Notes: a model not told the origin generated them from the letters alone. Numbered from the whole stretch's first letter, positions 23,375-34,816 are shown. The stretch is 63,657 nt of DNA, filler included, from 3 parts of 3 records of this genome joined end to end with filler, not necessarily neighbours in it, one strand, 5' to 3'. Numbers and translations: made by a program.

Positions 23375-23613
23375 TGTGATACATTTTCACAGATTGAAGA
23401 ATTAAGTGTTTAAAATAACATTATAGCACAATGACTTAACTACTATTAAGTACTAATTTTCGCTCCGACAACCGGCACCATTAAAAAGCCATCCCTCGCG
23501 GATGGCTTTTTCTATTATTACAATAATAACAACACCTTACCACATAAATAACATTTTTAATTGCTTTGTAAGCATAGTATGTTACACTATTTTGTGATAC
23601 ATTTTGTAATACA
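23351..23613 (+). other. attP-like site of a second element: tRNA 3'-end core flanked by 12-bp-period arm repeats
   Basis: TGTAATACA/TGCGATACA/TGTGATACA at 23351, 23363, 23375; core TCCGACAACCGGCACCA at 23464-23480; TGTGATACA/TGTAATACA at 23593, 23605. Confidence 0.7.
23483..23511. terminator. Bidirectional intrinsic terminator after the tRNA 3' fragment
   Basis: AAAAAGCCATCC-CTCGC-GGATGGCTTTTT. Confidence 0.8.
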
Positions 23614-29240: not shown

Positions 29241-30287
29241 TTACTCATCTTCTGGCTCGTCAAGTTTATTCATTAATTTGTCAAAGTCAGACTGATAAAG
29301 CTGGTCTTGTATTATTCGATATTTTTCAAATTCACTTTCGGCATGTGCTTTTGCAATTTCGGCACTAATTGTCCCAGCATTTTGTAAAATTTTCCTGTCG
29401 TCAAATTTCAAAAACAAATCGAGTCTTTTGGCCCAATCTTCCATTGTCATTGGAATTTTTCGTTTTGCTCTCTCTTCTGCTAAATCCAAATAGGCATTGA
29501 CAATTCTACCTAATGATTCTAATTCTTCTTGGCTTAAGTAATTTTTAGCAATTGCTACATCACTTTTCAAAACTTTTCCATCAGGGCTGTTTTTCCATGA
29601 TGTTAATCCCATGTGCTCCTTCTTACTGTCTGCCCTTTTCGCAATCAATTCAGCTGCTGTATGGTTGTGAATAGCATAATGCAACTTGTTTTGAACTTTT
29701 GCAAAGAATTCTTTTGTTGTAGGAGAAGCAGTATTATAGTCAATACTCGTAGAATAAATATCCGTGATTTTTTGATAAAAACGACGTTCGCTAAGCCGAA
29801 TTTCTCTGATTTCTTCGAGTAAATGTTCAAAATAATCTTCGTTTAGGAATGCCCCATTTTCCATTCGCTTTTTATCCAAAACATACCCTTTAATAGCATA
29901 TTCTCTCAAAACCTGCGTTGCCCATTGCCTGAATTGTGTTGCCCTAATAGAATTAACCCGGTATCCAACTGAAATTATAGCGTCAAGATTATAAAAATCA
30001 ATGTCGCGATTAACTTGTCGTTTCCCTTCTTGTTGAACTATTCGAAATTTTCGAACAGTTCCTTCCTCTTGAACTTCTGAGCTTCTGTATATCTCTTTCA
30101 GATGGTAGTTTATTGTATTAACTTCGACATCAAACAATTCTGCCATCAATTTTTGACTTAACCAAATTGATTCATCTTCATATCGAACTTCTATTGTAGA
30201 TGTCTTGTTTTGATTGGTGAATACCAAAAATTCAGCTGTGCTATTTCTAATTTGTAATTTTTTATCTTTTGAATTCTTATTATTCAT
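29241..30287 (-). CDS. Virulence RhuM-family DNA-binding protein
   Basis: IWLSQKLMAELF, YNLDAIISVGYRVNS..ATQFRQWAT, IREIRLSERRFYQKI. Confidence 0.9.
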   Translation of the reverse strand: MNNKNSKDKKLQIRNSTAEFLVFTNQNKTSTIEVRYEDESIWLSQKLMAELFDVEVNTINYHLKEIYRSSEVQEEGTVRKFRIVQQEGKRQVNRDIDFYNLDAIISVGYRVNSIRATQFRQWATQVLREYAIKGYVLDKKRMENGAFLNEDYFEHLLEEIREIRLSERRFYQKITDIYSTSIDYNTASPTTKEFFAKVQNKLHYAIHNHTAAELIAKRADSKKEHMGLTSWKNSPDGKVLKSDVAIAKNYLSQEELESLGRIVNAYLDLAEERAKRKIPMTMEDWAKRLDLFLKFDDRKILQNAGTISAEIAKAHAESEFEKYRIIQDQLYQSDFDKLMNKLDEPEDE

Positions 30288-30812: not shown

Positions 30813-31889
30813 CTACTTGGACATATACCTTAACCCAATATACTTTAACGCTGCTCCTAACACAGGAATATTGAAAATACGAGTCTTATCTGCTTCATTT
30901 TCTAAACTAAACCATACTCCTAAAGCGTTAGGTTCTCCACCTAACATTTTACGGATTGCGTGGAAGCGTATCTTTTTATCAGAATCAATAGGAACAATGC
31001 CGGCATCTTTTTTATATGCATTTAAAAACCGCTTCATTGAAACTACAGGCCTGAAATATTGAAGTGCTTTTTTTATATTTCCTTCGTTCATTACAATATC
31101 CTTACATGTTTCGCACTCTCCTGCTTTTATTTTCCAAAATGATAATTCATTTGTTTTGATACTGTTATCACATTGAGGACAGTACAGAAACGCTTTATTA
31201 TCAGTCTGAGTGAAAATATCAGCAGCAAAGACTTTCCTAAATTTTGAAAAGCCAAGCGTCATTTTTAACATTAATAATTGAATCATAACAAGCCCTGCGA
31301 ACACAAACTTGAATAAAAAGCCTAACTCAGGGTGAAAAATAACTCCATCGTAAAACCCATGTGCCACACTTGCTAAAATCAGCGCTAGTAAAATCCCTAA
31401 ATAATTCTGATGTACTCGGACATGAATATAATAGGCTATACCCAAATAACCCGAAAATGAGATATGCCCGAGCGTTGAAAAAAACGACCTTTGAAAAAGT
31501 AATAAAAATGGTGTTTCAGATGAGAAAGCATACAGAATATTTTCAATAACAGAAAAACCTAATGCGACGGCCGTAATGTATATAATACCATCGACTATTT
31601 CATTAAAATCCTTCTTTATAAATTGTACCAAAAGCATTAGAGCCAACAATTTTGAAAGCTCTTCAATCAGGCCAATCTTAATTATTGCATCTAAGAAGTT
31701 ATACTCTACATGCACAAACCGATATAGAAATAGCGACACAAAAACCGAAACCACACCACCCAAAACGGTCACTAAAACTAACTTCCCAATGGGTTCTTTC
31801 TCATAAATATCATATGCTCTGGCTATCAGTAAGTAGATAAATCCGACAATGGTTGCCAGTAAAATAATTAAGATACTAATTGTGCTCAT
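30813..31889 (-). CDS. PrsW-family intramembrane metalloprotease
   Basis: YEKEP, IEELSK, LGFSVIENILY, AHGFYD. Confidence 0.85.
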   Translation of the reverse strand: MSTISILIILLATIVGFIYLLIARAYDIYEKEPIGKLVLVTVLGGVVSVFVSLFLYRFVHVEYNFLDAIIKIGLIEELSKLLALMLLVQFIKKDFNEIVDGIIYITAVALGFSVIENILYAFSSETPFLLLFQRSFFSTLGHISFSGYLGIAYYIHVRVHQNYLGILLALILASVAHGFYDGVIFHPELGFLFKFVFAGLVMIQLLMLKMTLGFSKFRKVFAADIFTQTDNKAFLYCPQCDNSIKTNELSFWKIKAGECETCKDIVMNEGNIKKALQYFRPVVSMKRFLNAYKKDAGIVPIDSDKKIRFHAIRKMLGGEPNALGVWFSLENEADKTRIFNIPVLGAALKYIGLRYMSK

Positions 31890-32022
31890 TAATTTTCGTT
31901 ATATAGGATTACTTATTATTGTTATAAAAATAACACAATATTTTTTCACTAACATTATGAATGATAATAGAGTTTATGAGTTCTCCCAAAACTCCATTAT
32001 CATTCAATTTCACTCAATATAA

Positions 32023-33033
32023 CTAAAGTAACACAACGCCCCTCTCCCTTTCTTCAGCTTTTATGGTTTCATCCCAAATGCCTACTTGCACTTCACCAAT
32101 GTGTTTTTTGCGCAGCATATACATACAAACGCGAGACTGACCGATTCCACCGCCTATACTTTCCGGCAATCTATCTTCCAAAAGCAACTTGTGAAACAAA
32201 AGCGATTTTCTATCTAAAGCACCTTTTTCATCCAATTGATGCAAAAGTGCCATTTTATCCACTCGTATACCCATTGATGATATTTCAAAGCTATCTTTTA
32301 AAAGTGGATGCCAAACCAAAATATCGCCGTTTAATCCGGCAAATCCCTCATCGCTTTTCGTACTCCAATCGTCGTAATCCGGAGCGCGACCATCATGGGG
32401 TTCCCCGTTGCTTAATTTTCCTCCTATGCCCATTAAAAATACAGCTCCGTATTGTTTTACAATTTCTCTCTCCCGCTCTTTAGGCTTCAATTCAGGATAC
32501 ATTTTCAATAGCTGCTCAGTATGTATAAATGTTATTTCCGATGGCAATAAAGGCTGCACATCATCATACATACCAGCCACTTGCAATTCCGTTTGTTTCA
32601 ATGCATCATATATTTTACATACCTCTTGCTTTAGGTATTTAATACTGCGCGATTTTGCCGAGATATGCTTTTCCCAGTCCCATTGATCCACATATACGGA
32701 ATGGATGGAACTGTAATCCTCATCGGGTCTGAGCGCTCTCATATCAGTAACAATTCCTTTGTCCTCCTCTACCTCAAGCTCTTGCAAACGCATTCGTTTC
32801 CATTTTGCCAAAGAATTTACAACAACAGCCTTTTTATCCTTCAATTGCTTAATGGGAAAATCAACCGTACGCTCATAGCCATTCAAGTCATCGTTTACAC
32901 CAGTTCCGCTGAGCACAGCAATAGGCGATGATACTTTAGTTAAGCTTAACTTTTGCATTAGTTCCGACTCAAACACTTGTTTGGTGAAAGCAATGGCTTT
33001 TTCGATTTTTAAAATTTCTTGTTTCATAGACAT
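32023..33033 (-). CDS. asnA: Aspartate-ammonia ligase (asparagine synthetase A)
   Basis: SLAKWKR, HSVYVDQWDWE, HDGRAPDYDDW, SIGGGIGQSR. Confidence 0.96.
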   Translation of the reverse strand: MSMKQEILKIEKAIAFTKQVFESELMQKLSLTKVSSPIAVLSGTGVNDDLNGYERTVDFPIKQLKDKKAVVVNSLAKWKRMRLQELEVEEDKGIVTDMRALRPDEDYSSIHSVYVDQWDWEKHISAKSRSIKYLKQEVCKIYDALKQTELQVAGMYDDVQPLLPSEITFIHTEQLLKMYPELKPKEREREIVKQYGAVFLMGIGGKLSNGEPHDGRAPDYDDWSTKSDEGFAGLNGDILVWHPLLKDSFEISSMGIRVDKMALLHQLDEKGALDRKSLLFHKLLLEDRLPESIGGGIGQSRVCMYMLRKKHIGEVQVGIWDETIKAEERERGVVLL

Positions 33034-33062
33034 TTATTTAATTAATTTTCAAAATTTCAGGT

Positions 33063-33091
33063 AAAAAAAAAGCCTGCACACAGGCAGGCTT
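33063..33091 (-). terminator. Attenuator terminator 2 upstream of asnA
   Basis: Minus strand AAGCCTGC-CTGTGT-GCAGGC followed by 9 U. Confidence 0.85.
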
Positions 33092-33105
33092 ATGGCAATA
33101 GTAAT

Positions 33106-33165
33106 TTAGCCTACCGGGGGCGGAGGTTTATTATTATTGTTATTATTTGTGATTTTATAATTCAT
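33106..33165 (-). CDS. Asn-rich leader peptide 2 (MNYKITNNNNNNKPPPPVG)
   Basis: 19-codon ORF with 6 consecutive Asn codons, directly before terminator 2. Confidence 0.8.
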   Translation of the reverse strand: MNYKITNNNNNNKPPPPVG

Positions 33166-33175
33166 ATTTTGGTAT

Positions 33176-33205
33176 AAAAAAAGGCCTTCCGAAAACGGAA
33201 GGCCT
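33176..33205 (-). terminator. Attenuator terminator 1 upstream of asnA
   Basis: Minus strand AGGCCTTCCG-TTTT-CGGAAGGCCT followed by a U tract. Confidence 0.85.
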
Positions 33206-33227
33206 CATTTAGTTCATATTTTTTGCG

Positions 33228-33308
33228 CTAAACTATAACCTTCCTAACTCCGAATGTATTATTATTCGAATTATTAAGATTGTTATTATTTAGAACTGCG
33301 TTTATCAT
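33228..33308 (-). CDS. Asn-rich leader peptide 1 (MINAVLNNNNLNNSNNNTFGVRKVIV)
   Basis: 26-codon ORF with 10 Asn codons, between the promoter and terminator 1. Confidence 0.8.
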   Translation of the reverse strand: MINAVLNNNNLNNSNNNTFGVRKVIV

Positions 33309-33318
33309 AATCTGAAAT

Positions 33319-33351
33319 CAAATATACGTACTAATATTTTAAAAAAGCAAA
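33319..33351 (-). promoter_or_regulatory. Bacteroidota housekeeping promoter for the asnA leader
   Basis: TTTG (33351-33348), 21 nt, TATATTTG (33326-33319); matches the TTTG/TAnnTTTG consensus. Confidence 0.7.
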
Positions 33352-33379
33352 ATTATTATGTTGGAACAATCAATTTAGC

Positions 33380-34483
33380 TTAAGAAACACATGATTTATC
33401 AGTGCCCAAAGATTTTAGCATCATTAGATGTTGACCTAAAGCCTTAAAAAATGATCCATTTACATGATATGGCAAATTATACTTTTGCGTGGTTTCCTGA
33501 ACTATTTTCGACAGTTTTTTATAGTGTACATGACTAATGCTAGGAAAAAGATGGTGTACCACCTGGTAGTTCAATCCACCTACCAACCATGAAAAAACTT
33601 TACTATTTGGTGCAAAATCAGCTGTCGTATACAACTGATGCACAGTCCAATTGCTATCCATTTCATTATTATCATCCGGTAAAGGATAATCAGACGAAGG
33701 AACTACGTGTGCTGTCTGAAAAATTGTACTTAAAATTAATCCGCTTACAAAATGCATCAATAAAAAACCCAACACGATCCAATACCATGCAATTGGGACA
33801 ATGATTATTGGTAATACAAGAAACGCAGCATAATATATAATTTTTGAGAACAACAATTTTACAAAAAGGAGGTTATAATTTCCTGTTCCATCCAATATTG
33901 CTCCATCTCTTTTATATTTAAACAAACGTTTAAAGTCTTTTAGTGTAATCCATGAAAAAGTCATTAAACCATACAATGCCCATGCATAAATATATTGATA
34001 CTTATGTACTTTTTTAAGCGGTTTATGCGGAGAAAAACGCAAAACTCCCCCATGCCCAATATCCTCATCATGACCTTCAACATTGGGATATCCATGATGC
34101 AAAGTATTATGCTGATATTTCCAATTGGCTGGCAAACCACCAAGCACATACAATGACTTTTCAAAAAGCTTGTTTACCCAGGGACGTTTTGAGAATGATC
34201 CATGATTGGCATCATGCATAGTAACCACACCAATACCTGACATCCCTATTCCCATCACAAACCAGGCAATTAATACTGGCATAAGAGTATTAATTACACC
34301 AGCCATCATTAATGCATAGGGTACAAAGTAAACCAACAACATCATTAGGGTCTTAATCAATATTTGCGTACCTCCAAACTTTGAAATTCCTTTATTTTCA
34401 AAGTATCTGTTCACTGCTGCATACAACTCTGCGGTAAATTCCACATTATTGTTTTTATACCTTATCTTATCCATATTATTCAC
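33380..34483 (-). CDS. Fatty acid (acyl-CoA) desaturase
   Basis: His boxes HDANH, HNTLHH and QVVHHLFP; TM segments. Confidence 0.9.
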   Translation of the reverse strand: MNNMDKIRYKNNNVEFTAELYAAVNRYFENKGISKFGGTQILIKTLMMLLVYFVPYALMMAGVINTLMPVLIAWFVMGIGMSGIGVVTMHDANHGSFSKRPWVNKLFEKSLYVLGGLPANWKYQHNTLHHGYPNVEGHDEDIGHGGVLRFSPHKPLKKVHKYQYIYAWALYGLMTFSWITLKDFKRLFKYKRDGAILDGTGNYNLLFVKLLFSKIIYYAAFLVLPIIIVPIAWYWIVLGFLLMHFVSGLILSTIFQTAHVVPSSDYPLPDDNNEMDSNWTVHQLYTTADFAPNSKVFSWLVGGLNYQVVHHLFPSISHVHYKKLSKIVQETTQKYNLPYHVNGSFFKALGQHLMMLKSLGTDKSCVS

Positions 34484-34816
34484 TTAACATTTCTATTCTT
34501 TACTTCTAGACCGTAAAAACTTATTTACATTAAAAATTCCCAAAATAATAGCATAACTACTACTGGGTTATTTATAGAATCATCAAAATCAATTTCACCA
34601 GATAATATTCAGGAACGGGCTAGAGAAAGTAAGCATACTGAGAGTTTGTATATTTTATTCGGCATACTATTAAATCCTTCAGAGACTTTACCTTAAGTCT
34701 CAACGTCACTCACTACAAAATGGTTAAATTGTGATCGGTTAACATACTTCAAAGGAAACAAGCAGCAAATACAAATGTTTAAATTGATTTATAAGGTGCA
34801 ATCTACTGAGTAGATG

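Follow-up and report, generated by a model that had tools for sequence, protein, structure and literature searches.

In the classical attenuators of enterobacterial amino acid operons (trp, his, phe, thr, leu and ilv), a short open reading frame (ORF) carrying codons for the end product precedes two mutually exclusive RNA structures, an antiterminator and a terminator, and the position of the ribosome decides between them. To our knowledge, the amino acids classically known to be sensed by attenuators of this kind do not include asparagine. As regards asparagine synthesis, the E. coli asnA gene is controlled by AsnC, a transcription factor protein whose gene lies beside asnA, and in Firmicutes, Asn-specific T-box leaders control asnA and asnS by termination and antitermination, through sensing of tRNA(Asn) charging. 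In addition, tandem riboswitches and tandem T-boxes place two serial termination checkpoints on one leader, thereby sharpening the response. The present work deals with the region upstream of asnA in a stretch of Bacteroidota DNA of 63,657 nucleotides (nt), filler included, which is referred to below as the window. In this region (33063..33351, minus strand), two different Asn-rich leader ORFs, each followed by its own terminator, precede the gene, and their anatomy, conservation and predicted folding make it very probable that two asparagine-sensing leader-peptide attenuators in series control asnA. This would most likely extend a textbook mechanism in two ways, by a new amino acid specificity and by an unusual, heterotypic tandem.

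All elements lie on the minus strand and are given here in the order of transcription. A -33-like promoter element, TTTG (33348..33351), is located 21 nt 5' of a -7 box, TATATTTG (33319..33326), which matches TAnnTTTG and ends 10 nt short of the ATG of the first leader; the TTTG/TAnnTTTG pattern, applied here to 33351-33319, is what we take to be the Bacteroidetes promoter consensus. Leader 1, MINAVLNNNNLNNSNNNTFGVRKVIV (33228..33308), comprises 26 codons and a stop, with ten Asn codons (NNNN-L-NN-S-NNN). In minimum free energy structures, its Asn-codon stretch pairs with its own 3' part (helix 1:2, 33225..33296), and the latter includes segment 2 of this unit, GGAAGGTT (33237..33244), the putative 5' strand of antiterminator 1. 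Terminator 1 (33176..33206) follows, with a stem of 11 bp, seven of them G-C (33206-33181), a 4-nt loop and a T7 run. Leader 2, MNYKITNNNNNNKPPPPVG (33106..33165), is made of 19 codons and a stop; seven of the 19 are Asn codons, and a run of six consecutive Asn is followed by K-PPPP-VG. Segment 2 of the second unit, GGTAGGCT (33108..33115), the putative 5' strand of antiterminator 2, overlaps the stop codon. Terminator 2 (33063..33091) has a stem of 8 bp, five of them G-C (33091-33070), a 6-nt loop and a T9 run, and its end is separated by 29 nt from asnA, which codes for an aspartate--ammonia ligase of 336 aa (32023..33033, ATG at 33033; TIGR00669, 400.9 bits for a cut-off of 292.8). The promoter, leaders, terminators and gene had been listed in an earlier note on this DNA and were all found where the note had placed them, the stem of terminator 1 measuring 11 pairs. 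The same note had claimed a possible pairing between the 3' end of each leader and the 5' arm of the terminator that follows it; this was borne out for both units, since GGAAGGTT and GGTAGGCT are each complementary to that arm, G-U pairs included.

This arrangement of tandem Asn leaders and terminators lies far beyond chance. When both strands of the window (63.7 kb) were surveyed in full, 1062 ATG-started ORFs of 6-70 aa were found, of which leaders 1 and 2 alone contain at least five Asn in any eight residues. The 346-nt intergenic region was shuffled 2000 times with its dinucleotide composition preserved; one such ORF arose in two cases and two such ORFs in none. The 292-nt leader RNA folds at -72.8 kcal/mol (z = -7.06), a value equalled by none of 200 shuffles, and eight terminator-like sites are present within 31500-34800, compared to 1.6 +/- 1.4 in shuffled sequences.

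With regard to described systems, the region shares with the classical enterobacterial attenuators a leader ORF before a biosynthetic gene, an in-frame run of codons for the end product (here Asn), an intrinsic terminator, a covarying antiterminator and the ribosome geometry; the pairing of segments 1 and 2 is clear in unit 1 (-21.9 kcal/mol in the window, before the 3' arm of the terminator exists) and weak in unit 2. It would differ from them in that it senses Asn, in that it belongs to a Bacteroidota host, with a TAnnTTTG-type promoter and no Shine-Dalgarno sequence, and in that it comprises two non-identical units. T-boxes, of which no match was found in the window, bind tRNA directly and need no translation, unlike the device considered here. 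Compared to AsnC control in E. coli, the regulated enzyme and the signal, asparagine, would be the same; no AsnC/Lrp-type gene was found among the five genes flanking the window asnA, the only neighbours examined. Finally, the RNAs of tandem riboswitches and tandem T-boxes bind a ligand or a tRNA, whereas both asnA checkpoints would be operated by ribosomes and would follow two designs.

Within the same phylum, the Bacteroid-trp motif (Rfam RF01692) is given as cis-regulatory in Bacteroidetes in a published table (PMC2864571); like the asnA region, it is a leader-type cis-regulatory motif of an amino acid operon, although it concerns another amino acid and another gene, and the window contains no match to it at gathering score. 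Leader-peptide attenuation upstream of amino acid operons was also reported in a transcriptome study of F. psychrophilum, the candidates being given in its Table S7 and SI appendix, where an Asn or gatC leader may figure (PMC9723704). The poly-cysteine leaderless uORF (upstream ORF) attenuators of mycobacteria, recognized only lately, are reportedly another uORF sensor outside the classical amino acid set (bioRxiv 10.1101/834739); they resemble the asnA leaders in their non-classical amino acid and their very short or absent 5' untranslated region (UTR), but sense Cys. No Rfam family reached its gathering score anywhere in the window, the best matches below threshold (PyrR, 29.1 bits for a gathering score of 54; Phe_leader RF01859, 27.9 bits, and Thr_leader RF00506, 20.3 bits, for a gathering score of 55) being of the generic terminator/leader kind. 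The earlier note knew of no characterized double Asn attenuator, and this held true: neither a double nor a single one was found in the full-text literature searched, closed supplements and subscription attenuator surveys being outside reach, nor does an Rfam family exist for it among those compared.

Conservation was assessed in 81 loci, namely the window and the best 80 of 368 asnA relatives, all from Bacteroidota, by scanning the 500 nt upstream of asnA for Asn-rich, ATG-started short ORFs. Such an ORF is present on the sense strand in 51 of the 81 loci, as opposed to 0/81 on the antisense strand and 0/80 in the 3' flank, and when ten other amino acids were scanned likewise upstream of asnA, Ile alone scored, at one locus out of 81. 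One leader was detected in 37 loci, two in 14 and none in 30, and a hairpin with a T-run lies 3' of all 65 leaders according to a relaxed scan (59/65 in a stricter one). The leaders belong to two types: the first, found in 50 loci (alignment A1), reads NN-x-NNN-S-NNN and continues into a tail containing GGAAGG, and the second, found in 15 loci (alignment A2), consists of a short N-run and then Pro. Two further two-unit loci were found in Flavobacteriaceae (L114 and L115), and the two-unit loci as a whole span Bacteroidales, Flavobacteriales and other lineages. Leader 1 of L115 (reverse-complemented, about -270 to -190 from asnA) apparently starts with GTG, which implies that scans restricted to ATG undercount leaders.

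Several features tie the leaders to asnA and to a single transcript. The gene located upstream of them varies by lineage in the 15 loci examined, a desaturase gene occupying this place in just two, the window and its closest relative, which indicates that the leaders belong to asnA. In the window, leader 2 starts 15 nt past the stem of terminator 1, and over 14 loci this distance is 9-48 nt, leaving no room for a separate promoter of unit 2. Its start codon lies in an A-rich, G-poor context with a purine at -3 in 15/15 loci, and no Shine-Dalgarno sequence was seen at these 15 leader 2 starts. Concerning the promoter of the whole leader, the strict TAnnTTTG motif occurs within 70 nt 5' of leader 1 in 15/50 loci, compared to 55 of 5491 background windows (1.0%), and in 36/50 loci when one mismatch is accepted; a sigma-70 promoter scan gave no excess, with 12 sites for 14.6 expected.

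The RNA helices of unit 1 were examined on A1, whose 50 loci represent 49 distinct sequences, mostly from Hymenobacter. Terminator 1 is paired to 97.3% on this alignment, with compensatory changes in five of its ten pairs. The eight pairs of antiterminator 1, formed between segment 2 and the 5' arm of the terminator, are realized in 97.7% of 392 cells, and this value falls to 64.5 and 64.8% after a shift of the partner by one column in either direction, and to 39.3% or less at two or three columns; changes on both sides were recorded in three of the eight pairs. Where the GGAAGG/CCUUCC core varies, its three strands change jointly (L040, L042, L073 and L078, as well as L114, whose GGAAGA-type segment 2 is matched by a GTCTTCC/GGAAGAC terminator). 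Helix 1:2, in which the Asn codons pair with the 3' part of the leader, is paired to 70.7% and 75.1% if the sequences are simply aligned with MAFFT, and seven of its pairs show compensatory changes. As RNAalifold returned the terminator alone on A1, the alternative helices were set by hand. Besides, a cross-pairing control is uninformative in unit 1 because the terminator arm is almost invariant, and pair counting and permutation were used instead: in the duplex test comparing own with permuted terminators, 24 of 5000 permutations were as low as the true pairing.

How these helices may respond to a ribosome was modeled by constrained folding of the two window units, the RNA being blocked from its 5' end as far as a point 12 nt downstream of the A-site codon, counted from the first base of that codon. 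With the A site on any Asn codon, a complete antiterminator forms before the 3' arm of the terminator has been made, comprising eight pairs in unit 1 (-16.6 kcal/mol) and seven in unit 2 (-12.5 kcal/mol). If the stop codon occupies the A site, segment 2 is hidden in both units, the antiterminator is absent and the terminator alone can form. When no ribosome is present, unit 1 locks segment 2 in the 1:2 hairpin and would terminate, and unit 2 favors the antiterminator. The conserved in-frame Asn-run uORFs upstream of asnA, the conserved antiterminator 1 and terminator 1 with their compensatory changes, and the trp-type logic of both folded units, with an antiterminator at Asn codons and a terminator at the stop, thus all agree with what the earlier note had predicted.

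According to the mechanism proposed, the 290 nt upstream of asnA would form one transcribed leader with two ribosome-mediated transcription attenuators in series, both of which would read the supply of Asn-tRNA(Asn) through an Asn-rich ORF translated behind the moving RNA polymerase. When Asn-tRNA is plentiful, the ribosome would reach the end of the ORF and cover segment 2, the terminator (pairing 3:4) would form and transcription would stop. When Asn-tRNA is scarce, the ribosome would stall on the Asn codons, leaving segment 2 free to capture the 5' arm of the terminator (pairing 2:3) before the 3' arm exists, and the polymerase would read through. The asnA mRNA would be made only if both checkpoints are passed, and the response could be tighter or steeper with two units than with one. 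Unit 1 would behave as a default-OFF device of four segments, segment 2 being paired by the very codons for Asn; unit 2 would consist of a short leader with an Asn run, then Pro codons and a stop. Translation of the leaders, termination at both hairpins, the response to Asn and any gain from the second unit are what we infer from anatomy, conservation, covariation and the association with two sets of Asn-forming genes.

In unit 2, the terminators differ widely among the 15 loci of A2, and the stretch around the stop codon varies along with them. The mean energy of the duplex between each leader and its own terminator arm is -12.5 kcal/mol, compared to -9.77 +/- 0.64 kcal/mol with permuted partners, and none of 5000 permutations was as low; the pairing anticipated between leader end and terminator therefore covaries. 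In all 15 second leaders, Pro comes one to three codons after the Asn run, in the form of a Pro-stop in nine of them and of PP to PPPP in the other six, and the C-rich Pro codons of leader 2 are complementary to the G-rich segment 2. A parallel is offered by a study of pheL, in which a stop following a Pro codon is reported to be decoded especially slowly, and in which many ORFs end in Pro-stop, the Cs of the Pro codons pairing with downstream Gs of antiterminator and pause hairpins (PMC3082878). The Pro-stop ending of nine second leaders resembles those pheL leaders, from which the asnA leaders differ by PP to PPPP in place of Pro-stop in six cases and by Asn as regulatory codon. By analogy, both a slow ribosome covering segment 2 and a C:G pairing of the RNA would fit the Pro codons of leader 2, and a slowly terminating or poly-Pro-paused ribosome probably keeps segment 2 covered in this unit. 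In three two-unit loci, L001 (1365-1490), L073 and L074, leader 2 is without a stop ahead of the terminator, whose hairpin its ORF crosses; PP to PPPP still follows the Asn run in each of them. As modeled here, units 1 and 2 are different designs and not copies of each other.

The most serious alternative is that one unit alone senses Asn, the other being a plain terminator, a decaying duplicate or the source of a trans-acting small RNA (sRNA), in which case the tandem would have no meaning of its own. Single units do occur: Hymenobacter loci carry unit 1 without unit 2, L028 has a leader of the unit 2 type only, and the gatC loci described below hold one unit each. Moreover, a terminated attenuator product is known to act in trans as a small RNA, namely rnTrpL in Sinorhizobium. 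Attenuator-derived sRNAs have been described (PMC7968998). However, both units keep an in-frame ATG, the Asn run, the terminator and the covarying antiterminator in 14 loci as well as in L114 and L115, which is not expected from a decaying copy, and we regard this alternative as improbable. In Hymenobacter, the spacer of about 180 nt between terminator 1 and asnA (e.g., L009:1375-1450 and L002:1378-1452), where leader 2 is absent, contains a composite hairpin that is conserved, carries CUCCC-N4-GGGAG at its apex and ends in GUGUGCCUUUUU; it folds at -20 to -23 kcal/mol with weak z values of -1 to -2. This hairpin is without a leader ORF and, in the four Hymenobacter loci checked against Rfam, without a match, and may act as a second checkpoint of another kind.

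The Asn unit of asnA is also found before other genes. A covariance model, R1, was built on unit 1; within the window, it scores unit 1 at 90.6 bits and unit 2 at 35.8 bits, and its best off-target match, at 23477-23598 on the minus strand (28.1 bits), was set aside as a plain terminator with a stem like that of terminator 1 and no Asn ORF. In the genome of L021, R1 detected a further unit, made of MRNNNNNNNSNNPII, GGAAGG and a terminator, before a gatC-like ORF and gatA. The search of genomes, which scored 20 candidates in each, is of low sensitivity, and the counts that it gives are minimum values; of 151 genomes sampled from the family of L021, at least 41 contain R1 matches. In 15 of the 29 new loci, a leader of the form M-x-N(6-11)-F-N-N-P-N-x is followed by an ORF of 87-89 aa, for which GatC is the best or only family in 14 of the 15 cases, all below cut-off (19.6-26.3 bits for 47.1), and gatA comes next in 15/15 (312-387 bits on fragments cut by the end of the locus). 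When L086 is included, 16 out of 16 flavobacterial loci show a full single Asn unit ending about 20 nt before the gatC-like gene. These gatC-type loci (L086, minus strand, about 1501-1630 reverse-complemented; L109-L113, L116-L124 and L127) combine M-x-N(6-11)-F/S-N-N-P-x-x, GGAAGG and a CCTTCC/GGAAGG terminator. Since GatCAB makes Asn-tRNA(Asn) from Asp-tRNA(Asn), the presence of the same Asn unit at asnA and at gatC-gatA suggests that one sensor guards both routes to asparagine.

The remaining R1 matches (L088, L090-L095 and L125-L137) are sister attenuators in which the enriched codon matches the downstream pathway, with the exception of L129, which has a histidine kinase downstream and was judged a false positive. 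Ile/Val-rich leaders precede ilvD or ilvE in ten loci, and a Thr/Ser leader precedes thrA, a Lys leader an aspartokinase gene and a Cys run a cysK-like gene. These units suggest that the phylum uses leader-peptide attenuation with codons matched to the pathway. Two of the sister leaders are tandem, in L091 (Ile/Val/Thr) and L095 (Met/Cys), from which it follows that serial attenuators are not confined to asnA.

From these elements, a wider reading can be put forward which, taken as a whole, we hold as tentative and rather doubtful. It would see in the Bacteroidota a modular regulon for asparagine, operated by leader peptides alone, whose core GGAAGG / CCUUCC / GGAAGG is re-used at asnA and gatC-gatA and is complemented at asnA by the unit 2 sensor and an AND gate. 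In the same joint reading, unit 2 would terminate by means of a Pro-stop or of a poly-Pro 'parked' ribosome and not of a 1:2 hairpin, the serial AND gate would make the response to Asn-tRNA charging ultrasensitive and low in leakage, and unit 2 might in addition respond to elongation capacity (EF-P or proline). If true, no earlier counterpart of tandem riboswitches would have been operated by ribosomes.

The conserved core also lends itself to another explanation, according to which GGAAGG/CCUUCC would be a binding site for a protein or a small molecule, riboswitch-like or TRAP/PyrR-like, the Asn codons being incidental. The core is indeed nearly invariant over large distances and common to leaders for other amino acids, and the resemblance to Rfam families below threshold includes a PyrR site (29.1 bits for 54). 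Nevertheless, the joint change of the three strands where the core varies and the quite different sequences of unit 2 speak against such a site, the enriched codon always fits the pathway of the downstream gene, which a common factor would leave unexplained, and the sharing of the core among R1 matches is partly selected by the model itself. A binding site is thus very unlikely.

Still less credible is the idea that the leaders encode functional peptides, either small proteins or precursors of modified peptides, instead of sensors. The peptide pattern NN-x-NNN-S-NNN of leader 1 is well conserved, as this idea would demand, but the C-terminal halves shift frame while the RNA is conserved: GGAAGG is translated as R-K-V, W-K-A or G-R-L depending on the taxon. 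As the conserved Ser codon TCG moreover lies in the 1:2 stem, the constraint acts on the RNA. Similarly, the loss of the stop in leader 2 of L001, L073 and L074, where the ORF continues across the terminator, is at odds with a functional peptide, and no modifying enzymes are adjacent among the flanking genes examined. Lastly, an AT-rich spacer (28% G+C, 33 AAT/AAC trinucleotides in the asnA intergenic region) could in principle yield AAT/AAC runs by chance next to ordinary terminators of the upstream gene, but this is refuted by the shuffles, the ORF survey and the antisense and 3'-flank zeros reported above, as well as by upstream genes that differ between loci, and has next to no probability.

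Leader-peptide attenuation by two serial Asn sensors remains by far the explanation we favor, and the observations that weigh against it concern the initiation of leader 1, the energetics of the switch, its statistics and its distribution. The promoter proposed would leave leader 1 with a 5' UTR of just about 5 nt. In the two units, the terminator is in every case more stable than the alternative fold once its 3' arm is present, and read-through would depend on kinetics; the switch would thus be a kinetic one, as is the switch of the trp operon. Unit 2 departs from the four-segment model, its helix 1:2 being weak and its antiterminator being the best fold without a ribosome. In Hymenobacter, a distance of about 20 nt separates segment 2 from the stop codon 3' of it, which makes masking by a terminating ribosome less obvious. 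The covariation of unit 1 is thin, with a near-invariant core and five compensatory cells, and the prevalence of Hymenobacter in A1 causes shuffle statistics to overstate significance. As for the distribution, the 30 leaderless loci of the 81 include Sphingobacterium and Chitinophagales. Furthermore, in an even sample of the phylum, an AsnA-type gene was found with this query in just 13 of 301 Bacteroidota genomes, making AsnA a minority route to asparagine in the sample, and an Asn leader accompanies two of these 13 genes (AsnA 86% and 63% identical to that of the window), the other 11 being without one; a 47-aa ORF with four Asn, located far upstream in L100, was judged to have arisen by chance. 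None of the ten sampled asnA genes whose AsnA is 44-57% identical to that of the window has an Asn leader; as judged from these comparisons, the element is confined to one AsnA subclade.

For completeness, the genes flanking asnA in the window were assigned to FA_desaturase, PrsW, RhuM, Lcl_C-like and OMP beta-barrel families, one being without a family. The RhuM-family protein, of 348 aa (Pfam PF13310, 384.6 bits), is encoded at 29241-30287 on the minus strand, two genes downstream of asnA, and is unrelated to the attenuators.

With respect to the biology of the Bacteroidota, the element would add asparagine to the list of amino acids sensed by leader-peptide attenuation, and the heterotypic tandem would offer a natural case in which to ask whether serial ribosome-operated checkpoints sharpen a response. 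As transcription-translation coupling and Shine-Dalgarno-independent initiation are little studied in this phylum, the locus could serve as a test system defined by its sequence. The covariance model and the leader patterns allow such regions, which carry no annotation as yet, to be annotated in many Bacteroidota genomes. Finally, the AsnA and GatCAB routes would be tied to one and the same signal, which would help to annotate the flavobacterial GatCAB as an Asn-forming enzyme.

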